A stretch of DNA of 56,451 bases from Candidatus Binatia bacterium (GCA_041490745.1 JBGPTS010000001.1:1-56451); one strand, 5' to 3'; numbered from the stretch's first letter, positions 20,501 through 41,934 are shown. Translations and numbers: made by a program. Notes: a model not told the origin generated them from the sequence alone.

Positions 20501-22603
20501 ATGGAGTACACGATCGGCGTCGATATCGGCGGCACATTCACGGACTGCGTCGTGCTCGACGAGCAAGGCCTGCTCGTCGTCGGCAAGGCGCTTTCGACGC
20601 CAAGGGATTTTTCCGTCGGCGCGATGGACGCGGTGCGCGACGCGGCGCAAAATCTCGGACTCAAGAGCGAAGACGAGCTGATCCGCGCCGCAAGATTTTT
20701 CTTTCACGCCTGCACCATCGGCGACAATACTCTCGTCACACGCGCGGGCGCGAAGACCGGCCTCATCGCGACGCGCGGCTTCGGCGATGCGATCCTCATG
20801 ATGCGCGGCCTTACGGCCGAGGGCCTCACCGAGGTCGAAGCGGCTCACGCGTCCTCTCTAACCAAACCCGAACCCATCGTTCCGAAAACTTTCATCGGGG
20901 AGGTGGCCGAGCGCGTCGATTACAAGGGAACTATTTTGATACCGTTGAAGGCCGACGAGATCGACCGCGCCGTCGAGCCGCTGCTGGAAAAGGGCGTGGA
21001 ATCCATTGCGATCTGTCTTCTCTGGTCGATCGCCAATCCGAAGCACGAGAAAGAGGCCGCCGAGCTGCTGCGAAAAAAATATCCGAATCTGTATCTGAGT
21101 CTGTCCAGCGAAGTCGCGCCCTTCCTCGGCGAATACGAGCGCACGGCTACGACCGTCTTCAACGCCTACATCGGCCCGCGCATCTCGGCTTATTTGAATA
21201 ACCTCCAGCGCGTGCTCAGGAAAAAAAAGCTGCGCGACGAGCCGCTCATCATGCAGGCCTACGGCGGCGTGCTGAACGTCGGCGCGACCGCGGCCAACGC
21301 GGTCGGCACGATCGAGTCGGGGCCCGCCGCCGGCGTCGTCGGTAGTCGATATCTCGGAAAGCTGATCGGCGAAGACAACGTCCTCGCGACCGACATGGGC
21401 GGAACGACGTTCAAGGTCAGCGTCATTCATGACGGCGTGATCGAGAAGGACTACAACCCCGTCATCCAGCGCCACAGGATTTTATCGACCAAGATTTGGG
21501 TCGAATCGATCGGCGCGGGCGGCGGCAGCATTGCCTGGATCGACCCGGAGACCGGCATTCTCAAAGTCGGTCCGCAGGGCGCAGGCGCGAGCCCGGGGCC
21601 GGCGTGCTATCGATCGGGCGGCACCGAGCCGACCGTCTCGGACGCCGATCTCGTACTCGGATATTTGAATGAAAATTATTTTCTCGGCGGCAAGATTCGC
21701 CTCGACAAAAAAGCCGCCGAGAGCGCCGTCGCCGAAAAGATCGCCGCGCCGCTCGGTATGAGCGCGATCGAGGCCGCGAGCGGCATTTACAGAATCGCCA
21801 ACGCGCACATGAGCGATCTCATCCGCAAGGCGACGGTCGAGCGCGGCCACGATCCAAGAGAGTTCGTGCTCTTCGCTTTCGGCGGCGCCGCGCCCGTGCA
21901 CGCGGGCCGCTATGCGGGCGATCTCGGCGTCAAACGGGTGGTGATCCCGCTCACCGCTTCGGTCCACGGCGCCACGGGCCTGATCAGCTCCGACGTGCTC
22001 TATGAGTACGGCCGCTCGGATCACCTGATCGCGCCGTTCGATCTCCAACGGCTCAACCAAAACTTTTCCCCGCTCATCGCGCAGGCGCGGCGCGATCTCG
22101 TCGCCCGCGGTTTTCAGGACGCGGAAATGGAAATCGTCCGCAGCCTGGACATGCGCTATCGCTACCAGGTGCACGAGCTCACGCTCTCCGTTGCAACCGG
22201 AACCGGGGACCTTGAGGGACACGATTTGGACAGACTCTACGAAAATTTCCACGCGCTGTACGAGAAATCCTACGGCCGCGGATCCGGCTATCGCGAGGCG
22301 GGCATGGAAGTGATGACATTCAGGTTGACGGCGCGCGGGCGGCTCAAGAAGCCCAACATCGCGCGGCTCGCTCTCGACGGCAAAGATTCGGCCCGCGCGA
22401 TGAAATCGCTCCGGCCGGTTTACTTCGAGGAATATCGCGAGCCGGTGGAGACGGCGATTTACGAATTCGACAAATTGAAGCCGGGCAACGAACTCGCCGG
22501 CCCCGCCGTCATCGAGACACCGGTGACGACGATCGTCGTCAACCCGAAAGATCGCGCGACCATGGACGAGTTTAGAAATATTAGAATCGACCTGGAAAAT
22601 TGA
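20501..22603 (+). CDS. hyuA: hydantoinase/oxoprolinase A-type subunit (acetone carboxylase beta-like, ATP-dependent)
   Basis: N-terminal IGVDIGGTFTDCV and internal ATDMGGTTFKVS sugar-kinase/actin-fold ATPase motifs. The 700-aa length is typical of HyuA/AcxA-type subunits. Confidence 0.9.
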   Translation: MEYTIGVDIGGTFTDCVVLDEQGLLVVGKALSTPRDFSVGAMDAVRDAAQNLGLKSEDELIRAARFFFHACTIGDNTLVTRAGAKTGLIATRGFGDAILMMRGLTAEGLTEVEAAHASSLTKPEPIVPKTFIGEVAERVDYKGTILIPLKADEIDRAVEPLLEKGVESIAICLLWSIANPKHEKEAAELLRKKYPNLYLSLSSEVAPFLGEYERTATTVFNAYIGPRISAYLNNLQRVLRKKKLRDEPLIMQAYGGVLNVGATAANAVGTIESGPAAGVVGSRYLGKLIGEDNVLATDMGGTTFKVSVIHDGVIEKDYNPVIQRHRILSTKIWVESIGAGGGSIAWIDPETGILKVGPQGAGASPGPACYRSGGTEPTVSDADLVLGYLNENYFLGGKIRLDKKAAESAVAEKIAAPLGMSAIEAASGIYRIANAHMSDLIRKATVERGHDPREFVLFAFGGAAPVHAGRYAGDLGVKRVVIPLTASVHGATGLISSDVLYEYGRSDHLIAPFDLQRLNQNFSPLIAQARRDLVARGFQDAEMEIVRSLDMRYRYQVHELTLSVATGTGDLEGHDLDRLYENFHALYEKSYGRGSGYREAGMEVMTFRLTARGRLKKPNIARLALDGKDSARAMKSLRPVYFEEYREPVETAIYEFDKLKPGNELAGPAVIETPVTTIVVNPKDRATMDEFRNIRIDLEN

Positions 22604-22613
22604 GGAGAACCGC

Positions 22614-24437
22614 TTGGCTTCATCCGCGCAAAACGTGGACCCGATAACGTTCGAGATTTTGTCTCATCGCCTGTATCAGATCGCCAAGGAGATGGGCGCG
22701 ACGCTCGAACGCGTCGGCGGCACGGTCAACACGACGCAGCAGAAAGACTACATGGCCGCGCTCTACCGCGCCGACGGCGAGATCCTGTCGGCCGGGGAAT
22801 CCATCGGCATGCATATGGCCTGCGGCGGCTTCGCGGTGAAAAAAATTCTCGAACGCTTCGGACCGAACGGCGTCGCGCCCGACGACGTCTTTTTGCTCAA
22901 CGACCCCTACGTCGCCGCCGTGCACCAGTCGGATCTGTTCATGATCTCGCCGATTCACTACGAGGGCCGGCTGGTCGCGTGGAGCGCGACCTTCGTCCAT
23001 GTCATGGACATCGGCGCGCTGTCGCCGGGAGGCAACTCGCCGGGGGCGACGGAAATTTACCACGAGGGCATCAGGATACCGGGCATCAAGCTGATCGACC
23101 GCGGCGCGCTGAGACAAGACCTTTTCGACACGATTATCGGCATGACGCGCCAGCCGACGATGGTCGGCCTCGATCTCAAGTGCGAGATCGCGGCCAACAA
23201 CGTGGCGAAAACGCGCATGCGGAAAATGTTCGCGCAGTACGGCGCCGAGCTGATCGACGCCGTCACCCTCGATATGATCCGGCACTCCGAAGCCGTGCTC
23301 AGAAAGCGCATCGCGGAAATTCCCGACGGCGTCTGGAACGAGACCGGCGTTATCGAGGCGGAAGAAATCTGGAAGGTCAAACTCGTGTTAACAAAAATCG
23401 GCGACCGGCTCGTCTTCGATTTTACCGGCACCGATCCGCAGGCAAGCAGGGGCATCAACCTTCCTTTCCATGCAACCTTCGGCGTCTGCTTCAGCGCCGT
23501 GCTTCAGACGTTGGCGTACGACCTGCCGAAAAATCACGGCATATTTCGCCCGATCGAAGTCATCGCGCCCAAAGGAACTATTGTAAATCCGCTGCCGCCG
23601 GCGCCGGTCTCCATGAATACGACCTCCGGCGCGAAGATCGTCCTCTACGCCGCGAGCTCGACGTTGATGCAGGCGCTCGCGACGCACGAGCGGTGGAAGA
23701 GCGAGGTGATGGCGATGACCGTCGGCCGGCGCAACGTCCGCCACGCCGGCATCAACCAGTACGGAACTTACTACGTCTCGAATCTGTCGCAGACGCCGGT
23801 GGACGGCGGCGGCGCGAGATCGTTTCAAGACGGAGTGGACTCGGGCGGCGGCGTCAAGAGCTGCCCCAACGTCGAATGGATCGAAAGGAATTTTCCCGTG
23901 CTCTATCTTTTTCGCCGCCACGCGCGCGACAGCGCCGGCGCCGGCAAGTACCGCGGCGGCGCCGGCGTCGAGACCGCCTTCGCGATCAACGACGCGCCGG
24001 AGCGCAAGATCAAGGGGGTGGCCTATGGCGTCGTTGGTCTTAAAAATTCCGGACAAGGCGTCTTCGGCGGTTTTCCCGGCGCGCCGAGCGTTGTCGAGTT
24101 GTCGAAGAGCACGAAGTTGCGCGAATTGATAACGCACGGCGGCGCTTTAGACAATCTTCAGGAATTGGGCGGTCAAACGACCTCGCTGCCCTACTGCGAC
24201 TTTGAAATCACCGAAGAAGATGTCCTCTATACCCGGCAATCGAGCGGCGGCGGTTACGGGGACCCGCTCGAACGGGACTCGGGGATGGTGCGGAAAGACG
24301 TGATCTTGGGATTGGTTTCCGTCGGCGCGGCGCGCGAAGTCTATGGAGTCGTCGTGAATGGCGACCAGATCGACGCCGAAGCGACCGAACGGCTGAGAAA
24401 CGCCATGAGAGCGGAGAGAGTGAGACGCGGCGCATGA
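22614..24437 (+). CDS. hyuB: hydantoinase B/oxoprolinase-type subunit
   Basis: DPITFEILSHRL N-terminus and overall HyuB-like sequence. TTG start lies 10 nt after the hyuA stop. Confidence 0.9.
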   Translation: MASSAQNVDPITFEILSHRLYQIAKEMGATLERVGGTVNTTQQKDYMAALYRADGEILSAGESIGMHMACGGFAVKKILERFGPNGVAPDDVFLLNDPYVAAVHQSDLFMISPIHYEGRLVAWSATFVHVMDIGALSPGGNSPGATEIYHEGIRIPGIKLIDRGALRQDLFDTIIGMTRQPTMVGLDLKCEIAANNVAKTRMRKMFAQYGAELIDAVTLDMIRHSEAVLRKRIAEIPDGVWNETGVIEAEEIWKVKLVLTKIGDRLVFDFTGTDPQASRGINLPFHATFGVCFSAVLQTLAYDLPKNHGIFRPIEVIAPKGTIVNPLPPAPVSMNTTSGAKIVLYAASSTLMQALATHERWKSEVMAMTVGRRNVRHAGINQYGTYYVSNLSQTPVDGGGARSFQDGVDSGGGVKSCPNVEWIERNFPVLYLFRRHARDSAGAGKYRGGAGVETAFAINDAPERKIKGVAYGVVGLKNSGQGVFGGFPGAPSVVELSKSTKLRELITHGGALDNLQELGGQTTSLPYCDFEITEEDVLYTRQSSGGGYGDPLERDSGMVRKDVILGLVSVGAAREVYGVVVNGDQIDAEATERLRNAMRAERVRRGA

Positions 24438-25252
24438 CTTATCCGCTGAGAGAAAATCTGGAGCTTTTCACCGGAGCGGAAGGCGCGTCGATCCGCTGCG
24501 TGAGGTGCCGCCATATTTTTTGCCGCGCCGGCGAAGACTGGAAGCCGGCTTCCCGCAGTCGAATATTACCTCCGACCGCGGCAGGCCCCTTGATGAAGGA
24601 GGCGCACGGGAAATATGTTTTGCGGCAGACGACCTGCCCTTCTTGCGGCGTTCTACTCGACACCGAATTGATCGAAGAAACAACCCCGGCCGTCGAACCC
24701 AAGGAGAAACCGTCGAAAACACCGGAACCGGGTCCGCTGGAAGCGCGCAGCCGCGCGACGGCGATCTTGGTTCTCGACATGAGCGCCCGCTGCGAAGATC
24801 CCGCTCTCACCTGTCACGCCTTGCTGCCGGGACTCGCCGCCTTTCTTGAGAAGGCGCGCGCCGCGTCACTGCCGATTATTTTTTCCGTTTCCGCGTCGCA
24901 GCGCGGAACGCCGATGGAAAATGTCGCACGGCCGCTGCGCCGTCGGGAGAACGAGCCGGTGATTTATCCCGACGGCTTCGACAAATTCACCGGCGGCGCA
25001 TTGCAGAACATCCTGGAGCCGACGGGTATCAATACCGTGATTGTCACGGGCTCCGCCACCAATGTCGCGGTTCTCTACACGGCGACGACGGCCGCGCGCA
25101 TCTATCGCTATGAGGTCATTGTCCCCGTCGACGGCGTTAACGCGCGGACTCAGTACGCGCACGACTATTCACTGTACCAGTTGAGCGTGTTGCCGGGCGG
25201 AGTGCGCAAACGCATTCGCTTTACGACACTTGGGGCGATAACCTTCAGCTGA
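24434..25252 (+). CDS. fusion of an acetone-carboxylase-gamma-like zinc ribbon and an isochorismatase-fold hydrolase domain
   Basis: The N-terminus IRCVRCRHIFCRAGEDWK...TTCPSCGVLLDTELIE follows the AcxC pattern CxCxH..C...CPxCG. The C-terminus has isochorismatase-family features: LVLDMS (Asp), DKFTGGAL (Lys) and VIVTGSATNVAVLYTA. ATGA overlap with the hyuB stop. Confidence 0.8.
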   Translation: MTYPLRENLELFTGAEGASIRCVRCRHIFCRAGEDWKPASRSRILPPTAAGPLMKEAHGKYVLRQTTCPSCGVLLDTELIEETTPAVEPKEKPSKTPEPGPLEARSRATAILVLDMSARCEDPALTCHALLPGLAAFLEKARAASLPIIFSVSASQRGTPMENVARPLRRRENEPVIYPDGFDKFTGGALQNILEPTGINTVIVTGSATNVAVLYTATTAARIYRYEVIVPVDGVNARTQYAHDYSLYQLSVLPGGVRKRIRFTTLGAITFS

Positions 25253-25278
25253 GCGGCGGAGAAACCGGAAGGCTCGGC

Positions 25279-27066
25279 GTGGAAAAAGCGGACGGCAGGC
25301 TGGTCGAAATTTTCGAGGAAGGCCTCGGCGCATGGGAAGCCGCCGCCGCGACGGCCGGCCTCGTCGAGCGCTCCTATTTCATTGCCGGCCATTCCGTTCG
25401 TCTGCTTTTCGCCGGCGGCGCGCTCGTCGAGCCGATCACGCGCGCGCTGGCGCATCATGGACCGTGCGTCGCGCCGCCCGAGCTTACGATTTATCTTGGC
25501 GACAGCTCTTCGACCGCCATCGACTTGCCGGCGCGGCTCGGCTTGCCGACGGAAGAAACCGGTCCGGCCGGATGGATGCACCGCGGCGCCCGCATGCGCG
25601 CCCGCTTTCAACCGGACTACGACTCGCTTCATATTTTGGATACCAGCCGCGACTTCGCCCTCTTCTGGACCGGCGACGCGCGCCGCATCCGCTTCTGGGA
25701 AAAGAGCGCGCCCCTGCTGCTGATCTTTCACTGGTGGATGGCGCTCCGGAGCCGCCATCTCGTCCATGGCGCGGCGATCGGCAAGCCGGACGGCGGCGTG
25801 CTGCTGGTCGGCAGAGGCGGCGCGGGAAAATCGACGACCGCTCTCGCCTGCCTTCGATCCGAGCTCAACTATGCCGGCGACGACTATCATCTGATCGCGC
25901 TCGATCCGGTTCCATTCGCGTTCAACCTGTATAACTCGGCCAAGATCGAGGCGGCCAGCCTCGGAGACTTTAAAACTCTGCGCGATTTCGTAGCCAATCC
26001 CGACGATCTGCCGGCGGAAAAAGCCCTCGTCTTCCTCCACGAATGCCTGCCGGAAAAACTTTCAGCGGGATTTCCGATCCGCGCCGTGCTCATGCCGCGT
26101 GTCGCCGGCTGGCGCGAGACCGCCATCGAACCGGCGTCGCCCGCCGCGGCGCTCGCCGCGCTCGCGCCGAGCACGCTCTTTCAACTGCGCGACCGCGACG
26201 AAGCCTCTTTCACGGCGATGGCGGCGCTGCTGCGGAAGGTGCCCTGCTACAGGCTGGATCTGGGGACGGATTTGACTCAAATCGCCCCCGCGATTTTGCA
26301 ACTGCTCTCGCGCGGCCCGGCCGCGCCGAAGCCGCGTCCGCTCGTCAGCGTCGTCGTTCCGGTTTACAACGGGGCGCGTTTTCTCGCCGCGGCGATCGAG
26401 AGCGCGCTTGCCCAGGATTACCGGCCGGTCGAAGTGATCGTCGTCGACGACGGCTCGGACGACGGCAGCGCGGCGATCGCGCGCTCTTTCGAGGGCGTCC
26501 GCTATGTCTATCAGAACAATCAAGGACCCGCCGCCGCGCGCAACGCCGGCATTCGCGAAGCGCGCGGCGAATTCATCGCCTTTCTCGACACCGATGATTT
26601 AATGCTGCCGAATAAAATCGGCGCCCAGGCGAATTATCTGTTGCAAAATTCTGGCGTCGGCTGCGCGCTTTCCGGCCGGGAAATTTTCTGCGAGCCCGGA
26701 GTCGAGCCGCCCGAGTGGTTGCGCGACGACGAGCGGCTGCGCGGAGAGTTTGCCGTAGGCGACGCCGGGTTGGAAGACTTGCGCGCGGGAGGGATGTCGT
26801 CGGTAATCGTTCGCCGCCAAGCGTTGGAGCGCGCCGGCGGTTTCGATGCGGAGCTGCGCCACGTGGAGGATATCGACTGGCTGCTGCGCGTTCGCGACGC
26901 CGGCGTCAAGATCGCCGTCCTGCCGCAAATTCTCTGGCGGCGGCGCATCCACGGCGGAAATTTGAGCTACCAAAGGGATCGCATCGAGCAGGCCTGGCTC
27001 ATGCTCATGCGGAAGCGGATCGACCGGCGCCGCGGAGCCGCCGATTTATCAGGGAGGCCATCGTGA
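25279..27066 (+). CDS. bifunctional HprK-related P-loop kinase-like domain (aa 1-345) fused to a family-2 glycosyltransferase (aa 354-595)
   Basis: LVHGAAIGKPDGGVLLVGRGGAGKSTTALACL (P-loop at 25810-25836) resembles the HPr kinase/HprK-related kinase catalytic core. From about 26338 the sequence is GT2-like: VSVVVPVYNGARFL...VVDDGSDDGS...FLDTDD. GTG start. Confidence 0.8.
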   Translation: MEKADGRLVEIFEEGLGAWEAAAATAGLVERSYFIAGHSVRLLFAGGALVEPITRALAHHGPCVAPPELTIYLGDSSSTAIDLPARLGLPTEETGPAGWMHRGARMRARFQPDYDSLHILDTSRDFALFWTGDARRIRFWEKSAPLLLIFHWWMALRSRHLVHGAAIGKPDGGVLLVGRGGAGKSTTALACLRSELNYAGDDYHLIALDPVPFAFNLYNSAKIEAASLGDFKTLRDFVANPDDLPAEKALVFLHECLPEKLSAGFPIRAVLMPRVAGWRETAIEPASPAAALAALAPSTLFQLRDRDEASFTAMAALLRKVPCYRLDLGTDLTQIAPAILQLLSRGPAAPKPRPLVSVVVPVYNGARFLAAAIESALAQDYRPVEVIVVDDGSDDGSAAIARSFEGVRYVYQNNQGPAAARNAGIREARGEFIAFLDTDDLMLPNKIGAQANYLLQNSGVGCALSGREIFCEPGVEPPEWLRDDERLRGEFAVGDAGLEDLRAGGMSSVIVRRQALERAGGFDAELRHVEDIDWLLRVRDAGVKIAVLPQILWRRRIHGGNLSYQRDRIEQAWLMLMRKRIDRRRGAADLSGRPS

Positions 27067-27773
27067 CCGAGCAGAGCGCTTTGGTAAGCGTGATCATCCC
27101 CGTCTATAACGGCGAGCGCTTCCTCGCGGCGGCAATCGAGAGCGCCGTCGCTCAGGATTACCGGCCGGTCGAAGTCATCGTGATCGACGACGGCTCGGAC
27201 GACGGCACGGCGGAGGTCGCACGGTCTTTCCCGCAAGCGCGCTATCTTTTTCAAACCAACCGTGGTTTGTCGGCCGCGCGCAACGCCGGCATCGAGGCTG
27301 CGCGCGGCGAGATTATCGCCTTCCTCGACGCCGACGACGTCATGCTGCCGAACAAGTTGACCGTCCAGGCCGAATATCTGCGCGACCGTCCGGACGTCGG
27401 GTGCGTCCTCTGTCGCCAGAAAATACTTTTGGAACCCGGCGCGGCCCTTCCGGCGTGGCTCCCGCCGGACCGGATTTTCGGCGATCCCGGCGGCAGCCCT
27501 CCGGGCTCGGCACTCGTTCGCCGCAGCGCAATCGAGCGAGCCGGCGGCTTCGATCCGGCCTATCGTCTGGCGGTCGGAATGGAGTGGCTCGGCCGCCTGC
27601 GTGACGCAGGCGTCAAGGTCGCCGTCGTTCCGGAAATCCTGATGCTGCGCCGCGTCCACGACTCCAACCTGTCGCACCAAAATCGAAAGCTGCGCGAAGA
27701 GCTGCTGCAAGGCCTCAAGGGCAAGATCGGGCGCGCGAGAGCGGCGCGCTCGACGCGCGGCGGAGGCTCTTGA
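27063..27773 (+). CDS. family-2 glycosyltransferase (paralog 2)
   Basis: VSVIIPVYNGERFLAAAIESAVAQDYRPVEVIVIDDGSDDGT...FLDADD. The GTG start overlaps the upstream TGA (GTGA). The listed ORF 26715-27773 is an over-extension. Confidence 0.8.
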   Translation: MTEQSALVSVIIPVYNGERFLAAAIESAVAQDYRPVEVIVIDDGSDDGTAEVARSFPQARYLFQTNRGLSAARNAGIEAARGEIIAFLDADDVMLPNKLTVQAEYLRDRPDVGCVLCRQKILLEPGAALPAWLPPDRIFGDPGGSPPGSALVRRSAIERAGGFDPAYRLAVGMEWLGRLRDAGVKVAVVPEILMLRRVHDSNLSHQNRKLREELLQGLKGKIGRARAARSTRGGGS

Positions 27774-28468
27774 TGTCGGCGCCGTCTCTCGTCAGCGTCA
27801 TCATCACGGTATACAACGGCGCACGCTACCTCGCCGCGGCGATCGAGAGCGTCTTTGCGCAAACGTATCAACCCGTTGAGCTTGTCGTCGTAGACGACGG
27901 GTCGGACGACGGCAGCGGGGAAATCGCGCGGAAATTCTTGCCTCGCCTGCATTACTTTTACTATCCGCGCGGAGGCATCGCCGCCGCACGCAATCGCGCC
28001 GTCGAGCTGGCGAGCGGCGAATTTTTTTCTTTTCTCGACGCCGACGATCTGTTTCCCGCCGACAGGCTGGAGCGTCAAATGACGGAGTTTGCGCACGGCC
28101 CGACGCTCGACGTCGTCTATGGCCACGTGAGAGAGTTTGTAAGTCCCGATCTCGACGAAGCCGCCGCAAGGCGTCTCCGGCGGCCGGCCGAACGGATTAT
28201 GGGACGGCTCCCCAGCGCCATGTTGGTCCGACGCGAAGCGTTCTTTTGCGTCGGCCTTTTCAATACCGGGCTCAAAGTCGGCATCGGCCTCGACTGGTCG
28301 GCACGCGCGAGCGAGCATAAGCTGAACAACGTGATCTTGCCGGAGATCGTCTTGCATCGTCGGTTGCACTCGGAAAACAACGGTCTGCGCGAAGTGGAGT
28401 CTCGCAATCACTACCTCCGGGTGCTCAAGTCCGCGCTCGACCGGCGCCGCGGTACGCGATCGACGTGA
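27770..28468 (+). CDS. family-2 glycosyltransferase (paralog 3)
   Basis: VSVIITVYNGARYLAAAIESVFAQTYQPVELVVVDDGSDDGS...FLDADD. ATGA overlap with the upstream stop. Confidence 0.85.
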   Translation: MMSAPSLVSVIITVYNGARYLAAAIESVFAQTYQPVELVVVDDGSDDGSGEIARKFLPRLHYFYYPRGGIAAARNRAVELASGEFFSFLDADDLFPADRLERQMTEFAHGPTLDVVYGHVREFVSPDLDEAAARRLRRPAERIMGRLPSAMLVRREAFFCVGLFNTGLKVGIGLDWSARASEHKLNNVILPEIVLHRRLHSENNGLREVESRNHYLRVLKSALDRRRGTRST

Positions 28469-28531
28469 AACAGAAAGCCGGCGGCGGGACGCGTCGTTGA
28501 CAGGCCCGACGGCAAAGCTTAAAAGAACAAA

Positions 28532-28999
28532 ATGGCCGCGCGCTTTCGCATCAACCAACCTCACGTCTTGCACGAGACTATCGACGGAGAGGTCGTCATC
28601 ATCAACCTCGACACGGGGAACTACTACAGCCTTCGCAACAGCGGCGCCTCCGTGTGGAGCGCCATCGAAGGCGGCGCCGGAATGCAAGAGATCGCCGCCG
28701 CGTTCAGGCGCAAATACCGAGCGGATACGGACGCATTGCAGGACTTGCTGGCGAAATTCATCGGCCAATTGCAGAGCGAAGGGCTGATCGAGCCGTGCGA
28801 CGACTCCGAGGCGTCGGCGAAGCTCTATCCTGCCGGCGATGAGAGCGCGCCCACGCAACCGGAGCCGTTCGATCCGCCGGTGCTGGAAAAATTCGACGAT
28901 ATGCAGGATTTGATCCTGCTCGATCCGGTGCACGAAGTTGACGATGAAAAAGGCTGGCCCCACCCCAAGCGTTCCGGCAAGCGCGAGATCAAATCCTAA
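28532..28999 (+). CDS. PqqD-family protein (RiPP-recognition-element fold) with a roughly 65-aa acidic C-terminal extension
   Basis: HVLHETIDGEVVIINLDTGNYYSLRNSGASVWSAIEGGAGMQEIAAAFRRKYRADTDALQDLLAKFIGQLQSEGLIE matches the PqqD pattern of a beta-hairpin followed by a three-helix bundle. No pqqA/B/C/E genes are nearby. Confidence 0.8.
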   Translation: MAARFRINQPHVLHETIDGEVVIINLDTGNYYSLRNSGASVWSAIEGGAGMQEIAAAFRRKYRADTDALQDLLAKFIGQLQSEGLIEPCDDSEASAKLYPAGDESAPTQPEPFDPPVLEKFDDMQDLILLDPVHEVDDEKGWPHPKRSGKREIKS

Positions 29000-29030
29000 T
29001 GCGCTTCGCGTCCCGGGGAAACAGTTTTCG

Positions 29031-29861
29031 ATGCGCGCCTACGCCCAGACGAATCTCCAACTTTACGATCAGCTTTGCCGCGACGGTTATTCCGACCGCG
29101 ATATTTCCCTCGTCCGCTGCGCTTATGATCTCGCTATGCGCCTGTTCACCTGCCTCATGCTTCCCTCGGGCAAACTCTTCATCGACCACCTCGTAGGCAC
29201 GGCCAGTGTTCTCGCTGCTCTGCGCGCGCCGATCGAGGTCGTAGCCGCCGGTCTGATTCACGCGGCCTATTTCAACGGGGACTTCGGCACGATAAGAACC
29301 GGCGTCACCGACGCGAAACGCAAAGAGATTAGAAACAAGCTCGGCGCAAACCTGGAGGTATATGTCGCCCGATACCACGCCATGAGCTGGGACTCGAAGA
29401 CCATCCCGGCGATTCGCGACGGTGTCGGTGACCTCGACCGCATCGGGCGTTACGTTCTTTTGATCCGACTGGCGAACGAGCTCGAGCACCGGCTGGACTT
29501 CGCCGACGTCTACGCCGACAATGCGGAGTGGTTTCGGGCTTACAAGGAGCGCTACCTTCCCATGATAATCGACATGGCTAACGGGTTGGGCTTCCCTGCT
29601 TTGGCCGCGGAACTTGCGGAAGCGTTCAACGAAGCCGCCTCAGGAGAGATTCCGCCCGAAGCGCGGAGCCGGAGCGGCGAGCCGCGTTCGTACCTCGTCG
29701 CGCCCGAGTCTTATTGCAAGCGGCGCGGCCTCGCGCTCGCTCACGAATGCGCCGGCGCGATCCGTCGGCTACGCGTGGCCGTCGGTTTGCGGACAAGGCT
29801 TCGACGTCTAGCCGGCCGGTTTGCAAGCGGCAGGCGCGCCCTTGGTCATAGCCCGAGGTAA
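29031..29861 (+). CDS. HD-fold-like protein, degenerate metal dyad (H77-A78), paralog 1
   Basis: FIDHLVGTASVLAALRAPIEVVAAGLIHAAYFNGDFG resembles the RelA/SpoT-type HD hydrolase core (H...HD), but HD is replaced by HA. The start was chosen at ATG 29031 by alignment with paralog 2. Confidence 0.6.
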   Translation: MRAYAQTNLQLYDQLCRDGYSDRDISLVRCAYDLAMRLFTCLMLPSGKLFIDHLVGTASVLAALRAPIEVVAAGLIHAAYFNGDFGTIRTGVTDAKRKEIRNKLGANLEVYVARYHAMSWDSKTIPAIRDGVGDLDRIGRYVLLIRLANELEHRLDFADVYADNAEWFRAYKERYLPMIIDMANGLGFPALAAELAEAFNEAASGEIPPEARSRSGEPRSYLVAPESYCKRRGLALAHECAGAIRRLRVAVGLRTRLRRLAGRFASGRRALGHSPR

Positions 29862-29865
29862 CAGC

Positions 29866-30627
29866 ATGGAACGGCATCCCCAGACCTATATGCAGCTCTT
29901 CAATCTGCTTCAGCGGGAAAGCTACGGGGTCGATGAGCTCGTCCGCGTACGCGCTGCCTATGAACTCGCAATGCGGTTGTTTACCGGGTTTTTTATCGGC
30001 TCCGGGAGGACACAAATCTCCCACATTGTGGGCACCGCCGGTATTCTGGGCTCGCTCCGCGTTCCGGCGGAAGTCGTTGCGGCCGCACTGATACACAACG
30101 TCTACGAGAACGGCGACTTCGGCGACGGGACACACGGCGCCACGGAGGCAAGGCGGAAAGAGGTCAAGCATGCCGTCGGGAGCAACGTTGAAGGGTACGT
30201 TTACAGATTTTCCGCACTGCGGTGGGATCTAGAAACCATTCCTGCGATCCCCGATCGCGTCGATAGCCTCGATGCGATCGATCGCGGTGCGCTTTTGATT
30301 CGGTTGGCGGACCAACTCGAGCACCACCGGGATCTTGGCGGCTTTTACTATCATGCGGGAGTCCAGAGGTGCCGCGAGTTTGTCGAGCGCAACGGCGATT
30401 CGATGGTAGATTCAGCCGAGAAACTCGGTTTTCCCGCTCTTGCCGCCGAGCTGCGACAGGTTTTTCGAGAAACCCTTGAGGCTGATGTTTCGCCTGAGAT
30501 GCCGGGCTGCCGGCATTCGGGTCTCGTGCCGCCCCAATCATACCGCACGCGCATACCCCTACGCCTCCGCCAAAAGCTCGCGCGCGAGCTTCGCATCTTG
30601 CGTTGGGCTCTACTCTCCCCCGAGTAA
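29866..30627 (+). CDS. HD-fold-like protein, degenerate metal dyad (H77-N78), paralog 2
   Basis: ISHIVGTAGILGSLRVPAEVVAAALIHNVYENGDFGDG. Collinear with paralog 1 along the whole length, and starts 4 nt after its stop. Confidence 0.6.
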   Translation: MERHPQTYMQLFNLLQRESYGVDELVRVRAAYELAMRLFTGFFIGSGRTQISHIVGTAGILGSLRVPAEVVAAALIHNVYENGDFGDGTHGATEARRKEVKHAVGSNVEGYVYRFSALRWDLETIPAIPDRVDSLDAIDRGALLIRLADQLEHHRDLGGFYYHAGVQRCREFVERNGDSMVDSAEKLGFPALAAELRQVFRETLEADVSPEMPGCRHSGLVPPQSYRTRIPLRLRQKLARELRILRWALLSPE

Positions 30628-30628
30628 T

Positions 30629-31378
30629 ATGCGTGTCGTCGTCACCGGCGCAGCGGGTCGTATCGGGACTCAAATCGTTGAGGAGCTTTCCGAATCGCAC
30701 GAATTACGTCTTATCGACCGCCTGCCCGTGCCCGGGCGCGAATCGGTCGTGGCCGATCTCGTACGCGTCCGCCCGGGTTTCTTTCGCCGCCTATGGCACG
30801 CTTCCAGCCGTGCCCTTTGGGAGAAAACCTTCGAAGCCGCGGAGGTGGTCGTTCATCTCGCCGGCGAAGCTGATCCCGACGCGCCGCGGCGTCGTCACCG
30901 TCGCGACAATATAGTGGCAACGCGAAATCTCCTCGAGGCGGCAGCGCGCCACCGGGTGCGCCGCGTCGTATTTGCCAGCTCGAACTGGGTGGTGCGCGGG
31001 CAGGAGCAGGAATTGGCCCCGGCGTGTTATTCGCCGGAGGGACCGAAGATCGGCTCGGATGCTCCACCGCGGCCCGTAAACGCGTACGGCCTCTCAAAAG
31101 CGCGCGGAGAATCGGCCGGCCGCGCATTCGTCGATAGCGGGAAACTCCACTCGTTTGTCGCCGTGCGAATCGGCTCGTTTCTTCCCGCGCCGCCGGCGGA
31201 CGAGAGAATCCACCGCTGGATCGGCACGGACGATCTCCGAAGCCTGCTCAGGCGGTGCATCGAAGCGGAATTCGACGGCTTTCATGTCGTTTACGGAGTT
31301 TCCGCTCAATTGGAAACACCCTTCGATCTGTCGCACACGCGCCGCCTGCTCGGCTGGAAGCCGCGGCAGTTGCCGTGA
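30629..31378 (+). CDS. NAD(P)-dependent epimerase/dehydratase (extended SDR) family protein
   Basis: MRVVVTGAAGRIGTQIV Rossmann motif and catalytic YGLSK (YxxxK). The ATG lies 1 nt after the upstream TAA. The listed ORF 30440-31378 is over-extended. Confidence 0.85.
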   Translation: MRVVVTGAAGRIGTQIVEELSESHELRLIDRLPVPGRESVVADLVRVRPGFFRRLWHASSRALWEKTFEAAEVVVHLAGEADPDAPRRRHRRDNIVATRNLLEAAARHRVRRVVFASSNWVVRGQEQELAPACYSPEGPKIGSDAPPRPVNAYGLSKARGESAGRAFVDSGKLHSFVAVRIGSFLPAPPADERIHRWIGTDDLRSLLRRCIEAEFDGFHVVYGVSAQLETPFDLSHTRRLLGWKPRQLP

Positions 31379-31390: not shown

Positions 31391-32479
31391 TCATTTCTGC
31401 CGCGGATCGCGCAGGGCCGCGTCCGGCACTTTAAGCTCCCCGCGGCGCAAGAGCTTGACGGCGTTGACGAGGCAGCGCGCCGCGTTGCGCACCTCTTCGT
31501 GCAAATCCGTGTCTTGGTCGAGATCTTCGTGGCTGGTCGCGTACGGTTCGTAGTACCCGATATAGCTGCCGACCATTGCGCTGTAACCCGCGGGGATGAG
31601 GCCGATGTCCTGGAGCCAGTCCGTTAATATGCGCCGCAGATTCTCGACGCCCGCGGCGTCGCCGTGCACGACGACGGAAAAAACCCTTCCGGCGAGATGG
31701 CGCGGATAGTCCCAGCCCTTCAACTCCAATTCCTTCGCGCGCTGCGGATTTTTTCCGCCGGTGGAAGTCGGGTCGGGGTTGCCTCCGTCGGCGCAGACGA
31801 GCCGATCGATCATGAGCTTGAGCGTGCTCGGCGCCTGATACCAGTTCACCGGGCAGACGATCATCACGCCGTGCGCCGCGGCCCAGCGCGGATAAATCTC
31901 CGCCATCCAGTCGCCCGTCTGTCCCATCGCGTGGTTCGGATAGCACGAGCACGGCCAATTGCAGAGCGGCATCGCGGTCGAGACGCACGCCTTGCACGGA
32001 TAGATGACGCGGCCGTACTCCGACGTGAGGCGGCTGAGATCGAGAATATCCACGTCGAAGCCCGCTTCTTTCGCAATCGCCTTTTGCGCCATCGTCACGA
32101 GACGGAACGTTTTCGACATTTCTCCCGGACAGCTCTGGTCGCTGCGCGACGAGCCGTTGACGATCAGGATACGCGCGCGCGATTTGGGATCTTTTTGCTT
32201 TTTCTCGGCTTCGTGAATCGCCTTGCGCGTCTCCAGCCATTCCACCGGAAGCTCGAAGTTCGGATCGGCGAAACCGCGTCCCGCTACACGCACGCGCGGG
32301 CTCTTGCGGTACTTGTCGTATCCCTCCCACGCGGTCTCCAGGATTTTTTGAATTTCGCCGTCAACACCTTTGAATGCCGGATCGTAGAAGCGCGCGCGGA
32401 AGCGTTCGACGAACTCGTCTTTAGTTACTTGAGCGCTCGGCATGCCTTTTCGGACTTTGATCTTGGCGGGCTTGGCCAT
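31391..32479 (-). CDS. flavodoxin-fold NAD(P)H-dependent FMN reductase / iron-sulfur flavoprotein-like protein
   Basis: RILIVNGSSRSDQSCPGEMSKT and a Cys-rich CKACVSTAMPLCNWPCSC segment. ATG at 32479 is preceded by GGAGG with a 6-nt spacer. Confidence 0.8.
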   Translation of the reverse strand: MAKPAKIKVRKGMPSAQVTKDEFVERFRARFYDPAFKGVDGEIQKILETAWEGYDKYRKSPRVRVAGRGFADPNFELPVEWLETRKAIHEAEKKQKDPKSRARILIVNGSSRSDQSCPGEMSKTFRLVTMAQKAIAKEAGFDVDILDLSRLTSEYGRVIYPCKACVSTAMPLCNWPCSCYPNHAMGQTGDWMAEIYPRWAAAHGVMIVCPVNWYQAPSTLKLMIDRLVCADGGNPDPTSTGGKNPQRAKELELKGWDYPRHLAGRVFSVVVHGDAAGVENLRRILTDWLQDIGLIPAGYSAMVGSYIGYYEPYATSHEDLDQDTDLHEEVRNAARCLVNAVKLLRRGELKVPDAALRDPRQK

Positions 32480-32498
32480 CGAGCACCTCCGGGAAAAT

Positions 32499-32596
32499 AA
32501 GGACGAAGGATAAAGGATGACGGATGAAAAAGACAACTCTTTGTTCGGGATGACGGAGGCTTTTTTTTCATCCTTCCGCCCTCATCCCTCATCCTT
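32499..32596. repeat. intergenic purine-rich GGATGA(N)GG repeats in inverted orientation around a T8 tract
   Basis: aaggatgacggatga / ggatgacggagg on the left, then tttttttt, then catccttccgccctcatccctcatcctt on the right. Confidence 0.45.
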
Positions 32597-32624: not shown

Positions 32625-33350
32625 CTACGGCATCTCTTCGAGAAGCCTGCCATAACCTTTGACCGGCTGCCTGACGTGTAGCAGCTTCTCGACAGCCCAG
32701 ACTCGCGCCGGCACCGGATGGACGACGGGGACCTGAAGATCTTCTTCGAGCAAATGGATAATATCCAGCGTGCGCCAGCCCGAGCCCAGCATGTAAATCG
32801 CCTCGGCGCCCGGATGTTTCAAAAAAGCCTTTTTCGTGTGGGCGTAAACTTCCTGAGACGCGAGCCGGCCCACCTCTTCGAACGCGACGGGAATTCCTTC
32901 CATTGCCATCACGTCGAAGCCGGCGTCTTTGAAGTAGGCGGAGAATGTGTCGTTGATCTTGCCGGTGAAGTAGGTCACGCCGACGAATCTTTTTATCTTG
33001 AGCGCCTGCAAGGCCTGGACCTGCGTCTGGCTCGCGGTCACGATCGGCAAGTTATATTTCTTTTCCCAGCCTCTGACGATCTCCGCCTCGCCCTTGAAGC
33101 CATGAACCATAAAAGGCGGCGCGCCCTCGGGGTGAATGAGATCGACGCCAAGCCCGGCAAGTTCGGCGACGCGCTCCTCGTAGGCGCGCAGAGCTTCGCG
33201 AAATTCATTCTCGTCGCCGCGCTGAAAGCCGACAAAGAGCGGAATCACACCGATGCCGTCGGGCAAAAGCTTGATGAACTCTTCCAGCGATCCCGGTCGA
33301 TGCGTGGGCTTAATTAAACCAACGACTCCTCTCCAGCTTGTGTAAGACAT
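32625..33350 (-). CDS. Asp/Glu/hydantoin racemase superfamily protein (maleate isomerase / arylmalonate decarboxylase-like)
   Basis: MSYTSWRGVVGLIKPTHRPG... is typical of the maleate isomerase/AMDase family. The listed 462-aa ORF is an Arg-rich over-extension; the ATG is at 33350. Confidence 0.8.
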   Translation of the reverse strand: MSYTSWRGVVGLIKPTHRPGSLEEFIKLLPDGIGVIPLFVGFQRGDENEFREALRAYEERVAELAGLGVDLIHPEGAPPFMVHGFKGEAEIVRGWEKKYNLPIVTASQTQVQALQALKIKRFVGVTYFTGKINDTFSAYFKDAGFDVMAMEGIPVAFEEVGRLASQEVYAHTKKAFLKHPGAEAIYMLGSGWRTLDIIHLLEEDLQVPVVHPVPARVWAVEKLLHVRQPVKGYGRLLEEMP

Positions 33351-33394
33351 AATTCGTGCTCGTGTTCGTCGCTCGTGCTCGCGTCGAAATGCAA

Positions 33395-34870
33395 TCAGAC
33401 CCCCGCAAGGATCTTCCCGAACTTCGCCTTCAGCTTCGCCCTTAGCTCCGGACTCACATCGACGACCGTGGGGAATTTTCCCTTGAGCTTGCGCTCGTAC
33501 GGGATGCAGGCGTCGATAAGAATACGGTTGTTGAAGTTTCCCGGCAGAAACATCGGGTCGCGCCCGGACGACCACGCCCGCTGGATCGTGTCGATGCCGG
33601 TCATCGGATCGAATCGCGTGCACATCGCCCACAGAACCTGATCGATGTCCGAGCAGTCGATGTCCTCGTCCACCACGACCGTCCATTTGCCGTTGTAGGC
33701 GCCGGCGGCGCACGACGACGCGACGTGGAGCACGTTGCGCGTGTGGCCGGGATAGCGCTGGTGGATTTGAATCGCCGTGAATCGCGTCGCCGGCCCGCCC
33801 TCGTGATTCCACACGCCGAGAATTTCCGGCAGGCCGCAGGCTTCGAGCGCGGCCCAAATCTCCGCCGCTCCGCCGATGCCCTTGAGCAATCCGGTTTCGT
33901 CCACCGGCTTGTGCTGCGGCGCGCAGGTAAGAATCGGATCGTCGCGGTAGAGCACTGTCTTCACGTCGATGTACGGCCGCGGCACCACGTCGTCGGAGTA
34001 ATAGCCCATCCATTCGCCGAACGGCCCTTCGGGTTTCACGTGGCCGGGAACCGCGTCGCCTTCAATCACAATCTCTGCATCGGCCGGAATCGGAAATCCG
34101 GTGTACGGGCCTTTGACGACTTCGACCGGCTCGCCGCGCAGCCCGCCCGCGAAATCGTATTCGGAGACGCCGCGCGGCAGCGGACTTGCCGACAACATAT
34201 ATAGCAGCGGGTCCTGGCCGCATACGACGGCGACCTTCATGCTCTGGCCGCGCTCGAAATATTTGTCGCGGTGAATCCGGCCGTGCTTGCCTTCGGTGAT
34301 CTGACAGCCGACCGTCTTGCCGTCATAAACCTGGCAGCGATAGGCGCCGAGATTGTACCAGTCGGTGTCGGGGTCTTTGGTAATGACGAGATCCGCCGTG
34401 CCGATGTAGCGCGCTTGATCGAGCTCGTGATGGATCGGCACGGGAAACTTGAGGACATCGACGTCGTCGCCTTCGAGAACGTGATCGAGAATCGGCCCGT
34501 GCTTCAAGAACTTCGGCTTCAAGAAGCTCATGTTCTGCATGCGCTCGTGGTAGGCCTTGACGATGTCCGACTTGCGCTCGTACTCGAGCGGCAGGCCGAG
34601 CGTCAGCGCGACGCGCTTGATCGAAGAAAACTGTCCATAGAGCGTGCGAAAGCCTTTCGGGTAGCCGGGAACCTCGTCGAAGAGAATCGCCGGCGCCTTT
34701 CCTTTGCTCGACTGCGTGAGAAGCTGCGTCGTCGCGCCCATCTCGCGGTCCCAGTGAGCGCCGTTGATTTTCAAAAGCTCGCCGAATTTATCGACCCGCT
34801 CGAGCCAATCGCGCAGGCCGCGATACGCCACTTGCGGCTCCGACATTCTCGCTTTTTCCGGCCGTGCCAT
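33395..34870 (-). CDS. UbiD-family (prenyl-FMN-dependent) decarboxylase, copy 1
   Basis: UbiD hallmarks are present (YRGLRDWLERV..., EGPFGEWMGYY). ATG at 34870 is preceded by AAGGAGAAGG. Confidence 0.9.
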   Translation of the reverse strand: MARPEKARMSEPQVAYRGLRDWLERVDKFGELLKINGAHWDREMGATTQLLTQSSKGKAPAILFDEVPGYPKGFRTLYGQFSSIKRVALTLGLPLEYERKSDIVKAYHERMQNMSFLKPKFLKHGPILDHVLEGDDVDVLKFPVPIHHELDQARYIGTADLVITKDPDTDWYNLGAYRCQVYDGKTVGCQITEGKHGRIHRDKYFERGQSMKVAVVCGQDPLLYMLSASPLPRGVSEYDFAGGLRGEPVEVVKGPYTGFPIPADAEIVIEGDAVPGHVKPEGPFGEWMGYYSDDVVPRPYIDVKTVLYRDDPILTCAPQHKPVDETGLLKGIGGAAEIWAALEACGLPEILGVWNHEGGPATRFTAIQIHQRYPGHTRNVLHVASSCAAGAYNGKWTVVVDEDIDCSDIDQVLWAMCTRFDPMTGIDTIQRAWSSGRDPMFLPGNFNNRILIDACIPYERKLKGKFPTVVDVSPELRAKLKAKFGKILAGV

Positions 34871-34880
34871 GACCTTCTCC

Positions 34881-35741: not shown

Positions 35742-35879
35742 GGGTGTCGCCCTCCTGTAGACATTGTTTGCCGGTTCTTCGCCTGACATACAACGTTCAC
35801 TGAAGCAAGTCCACCGCGCGAGCGCGCCTTGATTTCGATTCGGTCCCGAACCTATACTCCGGGCGCTAGGAGGCCGCCC

Positions 35880-36386
35880 ATGTTCCCCCACCTGAAAAAC
35901 TTCAACTTGAAGCAGTGGATCGAAGAGAACCGCGGCGACTGGGGCCCGCGGCGGGTCATATGGAAAGATTCGGATTTCATCGCCTTCGTCACGCGCGGGC
36001 CGAACAGCCGGAAGGATTTTCATATCGACCCCGGCGATGAAATTTTTTTTCAACTCGAAGGCGAGCTGAACCTTCACTTCATGGCGCCGGGGAAAAAACA
36101 CGAGATCGCGGTCCTCAAGCAGGGCGACATGTTTCTCCTGCCGGCGACCGTGCCGCATTCGCCGCGAAGAGGCGAAGGCTCATGGACCTTCGTGGTCGAG
36201 CGCAAGCGCCGTCCCGAAGAACAGGACCTTTTCGTCTGGTTTTGCGAAAAATGCGGCAACAAGCTTTACGAAACTGCCGTTCGCTTCAACGACCCGACCG
36301 ACGCGGTCAAGACGGCCACCGACACAATCCGCTCCGACGTGAAGCTCCGCACCTGCCGCGAATGCGGCGATGTCCTGGCGGCGTAA
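35880..36386 (+). CDS. nbaC: 3-hydroxyanthranilate 3,4-dioxygenase
   Basis: Cupin core DFHIDPGDEIFFQLEGEL...GDMFLLPATVPHSPRR plus a C-terminal rubredoxin-like CEKCG...CRECG site, as in bacterial HAO. AGGAGG lies 7 nt upstream of the ATG at 35880. Confidence 0.9.
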   Translation: MFPHLKNFNLKQWIEENRGDWGPRRVIWKDSDFIAFVTRGPNSRKDFHIDPGDEIFFQLEGELNLHFMAPGKKHEIAVLKQGDMFLLPATVPHSPRRGEGSWTFVVERKRRPEEQDLFVWFCEKCGNKLYETAVRFNDPTDAVKTATDTIRSDVKLRTCRECGDVLAA

Positions 36387-36398
36387 ATCGGCGCCCAG

Positions 36399-37385: not shown

Positions 37386-37434
37386 CTTGCCTCCGTTCAT
37401 TTTTTACTTTTTATTTTTGCCCTTTTTACTTTCC

Positions 37435-41873: not shown

Positions 41874-41934
41874 CTTGATCTCCTGCCTGAAGGCGGCTCG
41901 CGCCCTGGCCGTGCGCCGCGCATGAAGGGTAGGG

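Follow-up and report, generated by a model that had tools for sequence, protein, structure and literature searches.

A conserved kinase, glycosyltransferase and PqqD-type gene cassette whose recognition protein carries a leader-like tail

HprK-like kinases phosphorylate linear precursors recruited by an RRE, the recognition element for peptides that are made on ribosomes and modified after translation (RiPPs), in the pathways of paeninodin and of linear polyphosphorylated peptides, or LPPs (PMC8498205, PMC13381572), while in the pseudomycoidin pathway a nucleotidyltransferase puts hexoses on the phosphate (PMC8498205). The LPP clusters, known from Bacillota and formed by LppA/K/B/S/D/N (Popov et al., Nat Commun 2026, PMC13381572), combine an RRE, an HprK-like kinase, a nucleoside triphosphate (NTP)-transferase, an exporter and an SpI peptidase with a separate precursor; they are reported as restricted to Bacillota, and their kinase, LppK, phosphorylates Ser only (PMC13381572). 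RREs of the lasso type bind a leader motif of the form [Y/W]xxPx[L/V/I/F/A] via 'knobs into holes' packing and strand addition (PMC13381572). Here we consider a cassette of seven genes, g1 to g7, lying at positions 25279-31378 of a 56,451-nucleotide (nt) stretch from a Candidatus Binatia bacterium (GCA_041490745.1 JBGPTS010000001.1:1-56451); the whole of this stretch is called the window, and numbering refers to its positions. The cassette is a conserved, widespread and uncharacterised relative of the LPP and phospho-lasso tailoring systems. The feature that would distinguish it, which was missed by the initial annotation of the same sequence, is an RRE protein, g4, predicted to carry and to bind its own leader-like tail.

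The RRE protein and its conserved tail

The g4 protein and its homologs are about 150 residues long, not about 90, and consist of an RRE, a variable linker rich in Ala, Pro and Glu, a conserved C-terminal segment and a short variable end. In the window these parts are:

28532-28801, + strand: g4 residues 1-90, RRE of lasso-B1 type with the PqqD fold
28802-28867, + strand: g4 residues 91-112, variable low-complexity linker
28868-28891, + strand: g4 residues 113-120, F-D-P-P-V-L-E-K, leader-like [F/Y/W]xxPxL motif, predicted to dock on the RRE
28892-28963, + strand: g4 residues 121-144, F-D-D-M-Q-D-L-I-L-L-D-P-V-H-E-V-D-D-E-K-G-W-P-H, nearly invariant, candidate region for enzyme recognition or as acceptor
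28964-28999, + strand: g4 residues 145-155 plus stop codon, short variable end rich in Pro and charged residues, the last residue of the window copy being Ser

The RRE is of the type found in lasso peptide systems. It matches PqqD (PF05402, E = 1.2e-13), its best NCBIfam model is NF033536, 'lasso peptide biosynthesis PqqD family chaperone' (5.7e-12), and by sequence it matches TbiB1 (E = 1.3e-8) and PbaB1 (2e-5); the top Foldseek matches are the leader complexes of TbiB1 and TfuB1 (5V1V/5V1U; E = 1e-5, TM 0.9, 32% identity). AlphaFold2 models the RRE domain with pLDDT above 90 and the linker with 55-61. The tail that follows has the consensus F113-x-x-P116-x-L118-E-K-[H/F/Y]-[T/D/E]-D-M-Q-D-L-I-L-L-D-P-V-H-E-V-x(2,3)-G-W-P-H. 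Within an alignment of 120 g4 homologs F113 is present in every protein, P116 in 119 and L118 in 113, residues 119-144 are almost invariant, and most columns from 121 to 144 are conserved in at least 115 of the 120. Mean identity to g4, taken over 279 non-identical homologs, is 44% for the RRE and 20% for the linker, rises to 75% for residues 113-144 and falls to 14% for the last 11 residues. Searching 1.8 billion representative proteins with the tail only returned about 1,700 clusters at 50% identity; among the matches listed, nearly all are proteins of 135-180 residues in which the match is C-terminal.

This architecture raises a question: Where is the precursor? The motif was sought in all six frames of the window and no copy besides that of g4 was found; because, moreover, the gaps within the cassette do not exceed 63 nt, there is no separate precursor in it. 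A search of the intergenic stretches of two related loci, L001 and L017, found no separate precursor ORF (open reading frame) either. Most probably, the tail of the RRE protein itself takes the part of the missing precursor. Stand-alone tail peptides were considered and rejected, for most of the short matches listed keep the end of an RRE helix and P0389 is open to a contig edge, which makes them fragment-like, and a tail match in a protein of 2059 residues (P0245) proved a false positive. In L002 (13428-13896), a near-identical copy of L001, a frameshift splits the PqqD-tail gene into ORFs of 135 and 51 residues; assembly errors can thus mimic stand-alone tail peptides.

Several lines of evidence bear on docking of the tail. 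Its start has the exact spacing of the lasso-type leader motif, and it shares a His at P+5 and an Ile or Met at P+8 with the LPP leader, YxxPxVLxHQxI (PMC13381572). AlphaFold2 assigns pLDDT 92 to residues 111-120 of g4, with the low-confidence linker and distal tail on either side, and predicts a strand at 118-121, matching the strand addition seen in the leader complexes of LppB and PbaB1. Pocket residues were mapped onto g4 by a gap-free alignment with PbaB1, in which the 16 quoted residues fit one constant offset, and position 72 of g4 is then the equivalent of LppB D70 and PbaB1 Q79, which hydrogen-bond the Tyr or Trp of the leader (PMC13381572). Among the 279 homologs, Asp, Glu, Gln or Asn occupies position 72 in 13 of 20 proteins with a Tyr/Trp motif, as against 9 of 256 with a Phe motif (Fisher p = 4.7e-12, odds ratio 51), a covariation expected if the aromatic residue of the tail occupies pocket 1 of the RRE. 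The 20 Tyr/Trp-motif sequences are all less than 60% identical pairwise, and of the Phe-type proteins closest to them only 2 of 20 have Glu at position 72; kinship may still contribute to the pattern. From the AlphaFold2 model and the covariation we conclude that the tail of g4 is probably held by g4's own RRE, either in cis or from one protomer to another. In a gap-free alignment on YxxP, moreover, the phospho-Ser3 of LPP falls on the invariant Asp131 of g4, a sequence correspondence that is only a lead.

Partner enzymes, recurrence and surroundings of the cassette

Read directly from the sequence, seven tightly packed ORFs on the + strand fill positions 25279-31378, and the JGI gene calls for an identical metagenome contig comprise the same seven genes. 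GT2 denotes glycosyltransferase family 2 and SDR a short-chain dehydrogenase/reductase:

25279-27066, + strand: g1, 595 residues, GTG start
25279-26313, + strand: N-terminal half of g1, residues 1-345, with a helix, a beta domain and an HprK/ScmC-like P-loop kinase domain
26314-27066, + strand: C-terminal half of g1, residues 346-595, GT2 (GT-A) domain of paralog type A, with DDGS and LDTDD motifs
27063-27773, + strand: g2, 236 residues, GT2 paralog type B (PF00535, E = 8.9e-37)
27773 (ATG) or 27770 (TTG) to 28468, + strand: g3, 231-232 residues, GT2 paralog type C (PF00535, E = 2.3e-33), overlapping the g2 stop
28532-28999, + strand: g4, RRE protein, 155 residues plus stop codon
29031-29861, + strand: g5, DUF6817/HD_4 protein (PF20680, E = 8.4e-10) with H53, H77 and N149
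29866-30627, + strand: g6, DUF6817/HD_4 paralog, 46% identical to g5 (PF20680, E = 3.2e-08)
30629-31378, + strand: g7, compact SDR of the uronate-dehydrogenase/Azf clade, with GxxGxxG and YxxxK

The initial annotation had described seven co-directional genes with minimal spacing, and all the ORFs lie where it placed them; its domain calls hold for every gene in Pfam and NCBIfam profile searches, its gaps of 63, 31, 4 and 1 nt are correct, and the GTGA at 27063-27066, in which the start of g2 overlaps the stop of g1, can be read in the sequence. Coupling of g2 and g3 was also rightly proposed, but not the ATGA at 27770-27773, where the bases are TTGA: the junction reads TTGATG, with the g2 stop TGA at 27771-27773, an ATG from 27773 and an alternative TTG at 27770. 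G+C over g1-g3 (window 25000-28000) is 0.635-0.658, as compared with a window mean of about 0.60; beyond this slight rise no other sign of recent transfer was seen.

By motif alignment the N-terminal half of g1 appears to belong to the HprK-type P-loop kinase superfamily. Its single-sequence matches are the weaker ones of the protein (PF07475, 0.004; TIGR04352, 4.7e-7; TIGR04355, 2.2e-5), with a faint precomputed match to ScmC (PF27840), and the kinase call of the initial annotation is backed by a profile of 14 g1-family sequences, which matches the HprK/P structures 1JB1/1KO7 with E = 3e-5 and aligns H163, the P-loop and D201-D202. Many g1 homologs carry a precomputed PF07475 match. Alignments of 14 and 65 sequences show little or no variation in H163, G178-x-x-G-x-GKST and D201-D202, and from their roles in HprK/P we take H163, the P-loop and D201-D202 to be the catalytic residues. 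The AlphaFold2 model of g1 (mean pLDDT 91.7) has a helix at the N-terminus along with beta, P-loop and GT-A domains; the 50 Foldseek matches listed for the full-length model are all GT2 enzymes, which confirms the GT-A part. Homologs of g1 number in the hundreds and include both fused proteins of about 600 residues and stand-alone kinases of about 350.

The GT2 domain of g1 (PF00535, E = 1.5e-33), g2 and g3 score 116.5, 127 and 115.9 bits, respectively, with PF00535, the gathering threshold of which is 23.3; all three have DDGS, and their DxD motifs are LDTDD, LDADD and LDADD. The g2 protein is 54% identical to the GT2 domain of g1, and its orthologs hold the same position in L001, L006 and L007; orthologs of g3 were found too. 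Polysaccharide and teichoic-acid glycosyltransferases are the best Foldseek matches of the g1 GT2 domain, and its best NCBIfam GT2 match is MftF (E = 2.3e-28), at 99 bits compared with a cut-off of 280.

Both g5 and g6 exceed the PF20680 gathering score of 25.2 (39.1 and 34.0 bits), their HD_4 matches being weaker. The site of g5 has H53, H77-A78, with Ala in place of the HD Asp, and N149, that of g6 has H53, H77-N78 (HN for HD) and D149; g6 was aligned to the Rel/SpoT hydrolase domain. SmaX, an atypical HD-domain oxygenase, modifies a RiPP precursor in a pathway of graspetide type; it is an active enzyme of the mono-iron kind whose site is formed by His, His and Asn, and DUF6817 and HD_4 are the only HHpred matches given for it (PMC12186529). 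We liken g5 and g6 to SmaX by family membership and by residue spacing. The pair had been annotated as degenerate HD paralogs; they are indeed of HD type, in the DUF6817 family, but plain degeneracy does not describe them well, as the g5 residues and their spacing would fit the active His/His/Asn site of SmaX.

The g7 protein matches PF01370 (E = 3.1e-19), the Azf glucose-6-phosphate dehydrogenase model NF041293 (6.1e-39) and, over its full length, the uronate dehydrogenase of PDB 3RFT (E = 4.7e-23), and the JGI name for it is 'uronate dehydrogenase'. Judged from these relatives, its substrate is more likely to be a sugar or a sugar phosphate, which it would oxidise, than an NDP-sugar to be tailored; the earlier suggestion that it supplies a modified NDP-sugar is weak, for g7 is of uronate-dehydrogenase/Azf type and not an NDP-sugar epimerase or dehydratase.

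The distribution of the cassette was drawn from a metagenome scan with the PqqD-tail alignment; a scan of genome contigs with the kinase alignment, which was driven by the generic P-loop pattern, gave at least 7 loci. Two further contigs, L098 (g1 70% identical) and L001 (g1 60% identical), contain all seven genes in unchanged order, the latter having an upstream context that differs from the window's. Co-occurrence was counted in 28 independent related loci with at least 6 kb of flank each: GT2 occurs in all 28 and a kinase in 27, followed by NTP_transf_5 (23 loci), an SDR (16), a Wzx-like gene (13), an ABC exporter (3) and DUF6817 (2). Hence, the PqqD and kinase genes are conserved together with the GT2 genes, and the outcome that the initial annotation had named as refuting its reading, homologous cassettes always embedded in classical EPS/O-antigen loci and no such co-conservation, is not what was observed. 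The gene directly downstream of the PqqD-tail gene is the kinase in 37 of 48 loci. Distant loci are found in Chlamydiae, Cyanobacteria, Gaiellales, Gemmatimonadaceae, Gammaproteobacteria, Smaragdicoccus and Synechococcus, the carriers including a cultivable one, Smaragdicoccus niigatensis DSM 44881 (L011); most of the distant loci retain the PqqD protein, the kinase and one to three GT2 paralogs, and in loci with three GT2 the lineages of the g1 C-terminal, g2 and g3 types are each conserved. The cassettes of the window, L001 and L098 lack NTP_transf_5 and an exporter and have two DUF6817 genes and an SDR.

The related loci vary in their additional genes. L001 (16802-18394), like L017, has an extra protein of 530 residues with a weak radical-SAM match between the SDR and FMN_red genes. 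The window lacks this protein, and the 520-nt gap that precedes it in L001 contains no noteworthy small ORF. L097 (8766-15559; g1 64% identical) has NTP_transf_5, the kinase-GT2 fusion, two further GT2 genes, a protein of 443 residues that matches no Pfam family and has an N-terminus resembling a signal peptide, and a sulfotransferase, after which the contig ends. Soil loci of Gaiellales type (L015, L020, L025, L028 and L067) have two HprK-like paralogs each, with two NTP_transf_5 paralogs in L015, L025, L028 and L067, the flank of L020 being short; in loci of this type a Wzx-like (Polysacc_synt) gene adjoins the PqqD-tail gene. In the distant cassette of L003 (6170-9833) the genes directly upstream of the kinase-GT2 gene encode an ABC transporter of Wzm/Wzt type, which includes a Wzt_C domain, and a membrane protein of 510 residues that weakly matches a GT-C arabinofuranosyltransferase; a GlcNAc-2-epimerase-like gene is also present.

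The surroundings of the cassette in the window are transport and catabolic genes. The main ORFs, annotated with Pfam, include hydantoinase A/B, isochorismatase-like, FMN reductase-like, UbiD decarboxylase, amidohydrolase and NMT1-type binding proteins. None of them encodes a lasso cyclase, a B2 protease, a radical SAM enzyme or a peptide exporter, and the absence of cyclase, leader protease, radical SAM enzyme and exporter noted in the initial annotation extends across the window; nor do these ORFs include a signal-peptidase-like or S26-type protease, a priming glycosyltransferase, Wzx/Wzy, Wza/Wzc or a classical polysaccharide export gene. The seven proteins have no match among PADLOC defence models at E <= 1e-3.

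Upstream, at 20501-25252 (+ strand), lie three genes that run in the direction of the cassette: hydantoinase A, hydantoinase B and a Zn-ribbon plus isochorismatase-like gene. Hydantoinase B overlaps the isochorismatase-like gene, and the last of the three ends 26 nt short of g1. L098 likewise has hydantoinase B and the isochorismatase-like gene ahead of g1, with an overlap of 4 nt between the isochorismatase gene and the g1 start; the upstream synteny is shared and hydantoinase B is 86% identical between the two loci. Given the different context of L001, this stretch may represent either synteny or an extension of the operon. Downstream, an FMN_red-like gene encoding 381 residues (31391-32536, - strand) is convergent with g7 and lies 12 nt from it; a copy with 83% identity follows the L001 cassette, but nothing in L098 truly corresponds to the gene, and it was excluded from the cassette. 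Beyond it, 32625-50608 is dense in catabolic genes of aromatic-acid type, including an Amdase-like gene, two Amidohydro_2 genes, five NMT1-like binding proteins, UbiD-family decarboxylases at 33395-34972 and 44624-46072 (both - strand) and a molybdenum hydroxylase at 41935-44229.

Proposed function and competing explanations

What, then, could such a set of genes do? The explanation that we favour, at about even chances, is that of a RiPP-like modification system of the lasso/LPP lineage in which the recognition element and the substrate are one polypeptide. The FxxPxL motif of g4 would dock in the RRE's own peptide-binding cleft via the flexible linker, and docking would present the invariant D-M-Q-D-L-I-L-L-D-P-V-H-E-V...G-W-P-H stretch, along with the short variable C-terminus, to the enzymes of the cassette. 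The kinase-GT-A fusion g1 would then phosphorylate and glycosylate the tail, g2 and g3 would extend the glycan, and redox tailoring would fall to g5/g6, as putative SmaX-like HD-fold metalloenzymes, and to the uronate-dehydrogenase-like g7; in the window subfamily g5/g6/g7 stand where most relatives have NTP_transf_5. We infer that the tail is a substrate, not a docking element only, as we infer the order of the steps and all of the chemistry, including the acceptor residue. The initial annotation had allowed for one of the cassette's own products as the target, and the leader motif in the g4 tail favours this option, with the tail as presumed substrate; phospho-glycosylation of Ser, which it had also envisaged, is not supported by a tail lacking a conserved Ser/Thr acceptor.

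Several observations weigh against this explanation. The tail has no Ser or Thr that all homologs share: at position 122, Thr stands in 95 of 120 homologs, but Asp or Glu in the window subfamily (Asp in the window g4), without relation to the presence of NTP_transf_5, and Ser or Thr follows GWP in only 77 of 120. LppK, for its part, acts on Ser only. An almost invariant 'core' is unusual for RiPPs, though known for PQQ and mycofactocin. The window subfamily lacks a protease and an exporter, so that no released product is evident. Among the Foldseek matches listed for full-length g1 there are GT2 enzymes only and no HprK, and the AlphaFold2 model and the covariation do not separate cis from trans binding, nor a substrate from an adaptor. 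Finally, the Wzx-like flippase in 13 of the 28 loci and the Wzm/Wzt transporter and GT-C-like protein of L003 hint at glycan or lipid-linked chemistry in the relatives. A wider proposal, which we put forward more tentatively and hold to be somewhat less probable than not, is that these genes represent a widespread unrecognised class of ribosomal modification systems, the RRE protein serving as precursor for itself: the tail, bound in the cleft of its own protein, would become a conserved phospho- and/or glyco-modified protein, a peptide-derived cofactor or a signal through chemistry beyond plain Ser phosphorylation; the invariant Asp131, His134 or Trp142 would then be possible targets.

The tail might instead be a cis-acting pseudo-leader, either an autoinhibitory plug or a device holding the RRE in a constitutive leader-bound, enzyme-recruiting state, with the substrate encoded elsewhere, as in the main reading of the initial annotation. 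Binding of tail and RRE is supported while modification of the tail is not indicated by the data, the tail has no conserved hydroxyl acceptor, a segment binding several partners would be expected to be this conserved, and it is the complex of RRE and leader that, in lasso and LPP systems, activates the enzymes acting with it or puts them in position (PMC13381572). However, no candidate precursor gene lies in or beside any compact cassette examined, the short stand-alone tail matches inspected look like fragments of fused genes, and a permanently filled cleft would compete with any leader acting in trans; altogether we regard the pseudo-leader as fairly unlikely. It is unlikely, too, that the product of the cassette is a glycan or glycolipid, a glycoconjugate either secreted or displayed at the surface, that three GT2, the SDR and, in relatives, NTP_transf_5, a sulfotransferase and Wzx or ABC transporters would build and export, with the PqqD-tail protein as scaffold and the kinase acting on sugar or lipid. 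The Wzx-like genes (13 of 28 loci) would suit this chemistry, as would the MsbA-like ABC exporters (3 of 28), but the latter also belong to the LPP core set (PMC13381572). The Wzm/Wzt-type genes, GT-C-like membrane protein and GlcNAc-2-epimerase-like gene of L003, the Foldseek neighbours of the g1 GT2 domain and the resemblance of g7 to enzymes acting on free sugars or sugar phosphates point the same way, and LPP and paeninodin clusters themselves lie in capsule loci (PMC13381572). Yet a priming glycosyltransferase, Wzy or Wzz was seen in no locus, the cassettes of the window, L001 and L098 lie amid metabolic genes without a transporter, and an RRE that holds a leader motif is characteristic of systems that modify peptides.

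That the seven genes are neighbours merely by chance or shared ancestry, forming no single functional system, is highly improbable. The upstream synteny of the window and L098, with the hydantoinase B of the two so similar, does mean that part of the conservation reflects relatedness, but the L001 cassette lies in a different upstream context, the PqqD-tail/kinase/GT2 core extends across Chlamydiae, Cyanobacteria, Actinobacteria, Gemmatimonadota and Proteobacteria, and start and stop codons overlap.

Should the self-docking RRE protein prove to be its own substrate, the modification logic of HprK kinase and RRE known from paeninodin and LPP would reach far beyond Bacillota, into a wider family of soil Actinobacteria, Cyanobacteria, Chlamydiae, Gemmatimonadota and Proteobacteria with some 1,700 tail-matching clusters. 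A natural RRE-leader fusion would also be a new architecture for RiPP-type pathways and would explain some 'orphan' RREs; in one survey, 21% of PF05402 proteins were larger than a discrete RRE yet without a second domain (PMC12710340). The g4 tail would offer a defined candidate substrate for three GT2 enzymes, an HprK-like kinase and two SmaX-like proteins, and the covariation of motif and pocket independently supports the rule of Tyr/Trp discrimination derived from crystal structures.

Comparison with described systems

The closest described relatives are the LPP clusters. Both they and the cassette have a lasso-type RRE and an HprK-like kinase with no lasso cyclase, in surroundings rich in glycosyltransferases; relatives of the cassette carry NTP_transf_5 and, less often, an MsbA-like exporter, and the motif spacing, [Y/F]xxPx[V/L]xxHxx[I/M], and the logic of the RRE pocket, in which the Tyr/Asp position covaries, are the same. 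In contrast to LPP, the cassette lacks an SpI-like (SipW-type) leader peptidase, both in the window and among the Pfam-annotated genes of the related loci inspected, and has no separate precursor gene with an N-terminal YxxPxVLxHQxIxFETxxS leader and a Ser acceptor, the related motif FxxPVLEK[H/F] being fused to the RRE protein; it has three small GT2 enzymes, one of them fused to the kinase, an invariant Asp131 at the position of LppA Ser3, and a family that occurs outside Bacillota. In its window subfamily, two DUF6817 proteins and the SDR are found in place of the NTP-transferase and the exporter.

The link drawn by the initial annotation to HprK/PqqD systems of the paeninodin and pseudomycoidin type is well founded (PMC8498205): the cassette shares with them a B1-type RRE for YxxPxL, an HprK-homologous kinase and, in its relatives, NTP_transf_5 and sulfotransferase, and they provide the precedent for placing sugar on phosphate. 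Unlike these systems (PMC8498205), it has no cyclase (C), B2 protease or lasso precursor, and its glycosyltransferases are GT2 enzymes rather than solely an enzyme of nucleotidyltransferase fold; neither an Asn-synthetase-like cyclase nor a transglutaminase-like B2 occurs in the window or in the Pfam-annotated genes of the related loci inspected.

The pairing of an HprK-related protein with a PqqD-family chaperone also recalls two systems that are defined in databases and uncharacterised, HPr-rel-A (TIGR04352 kinase and TIGR04353 PqqD) and SynChlorMet (ScmC/ScmD), and JGI labels one g4 homolog as 'PqqD family protein of HPr-rel-A system'. The scores, however, fall far below the curated cut-offs (g1, 29.2 vs 200 bits; g4, 23.6 vs 35; ScmD, 22 vs 100), as does that of the Gaiellaceae homolog P0238 with the PqqD_rel_X model (28.9 vs 35), and neither the kinase nor the NTP_transf_5 and PqqD-tail proteins score above the cut-off of any NCBIfam model; the cassette has no radical SAM partners comparable to ScmE/F. 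With SmaX, g5 and g6 share the matches to DUF6817 and HD_4, and g5 in addition the His-24 residues-His spacing, the Asn replacing the last HD Asp and the loss of the canonical HD Asp, whereas g6 keeps Asp149 and neither the cassette nor the window has an SmaO-like Fe/2OG hydroxylase. The mycofactocin and PQQ pathways combine a PqqD-family RRE with a precursor of invariant C-terminus, and MftF is a GT2 enzyme. The cassette resembles them in its PqqD-family RRE, in an unusually invariant peptide segment and, potentially, in GT2 glycosylation of a peptide-derived product; it differs in having a fused precursor and no radical SAM enzyme, peptidase or flavoenzyme.

In the searchable literature we found no description of this gene set or of a natural RRE-leader fusion. 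The exact set, therefore, appears to belong to no described system, in line with the initial annotation, which knew of none, but it is not without precedent, since LPP is closely related. By analogy, the cassette is akin to the LPP and lasso systems through RRE-guided kinase and glycosyl chemistry, yet a member of none of the systems compared here.

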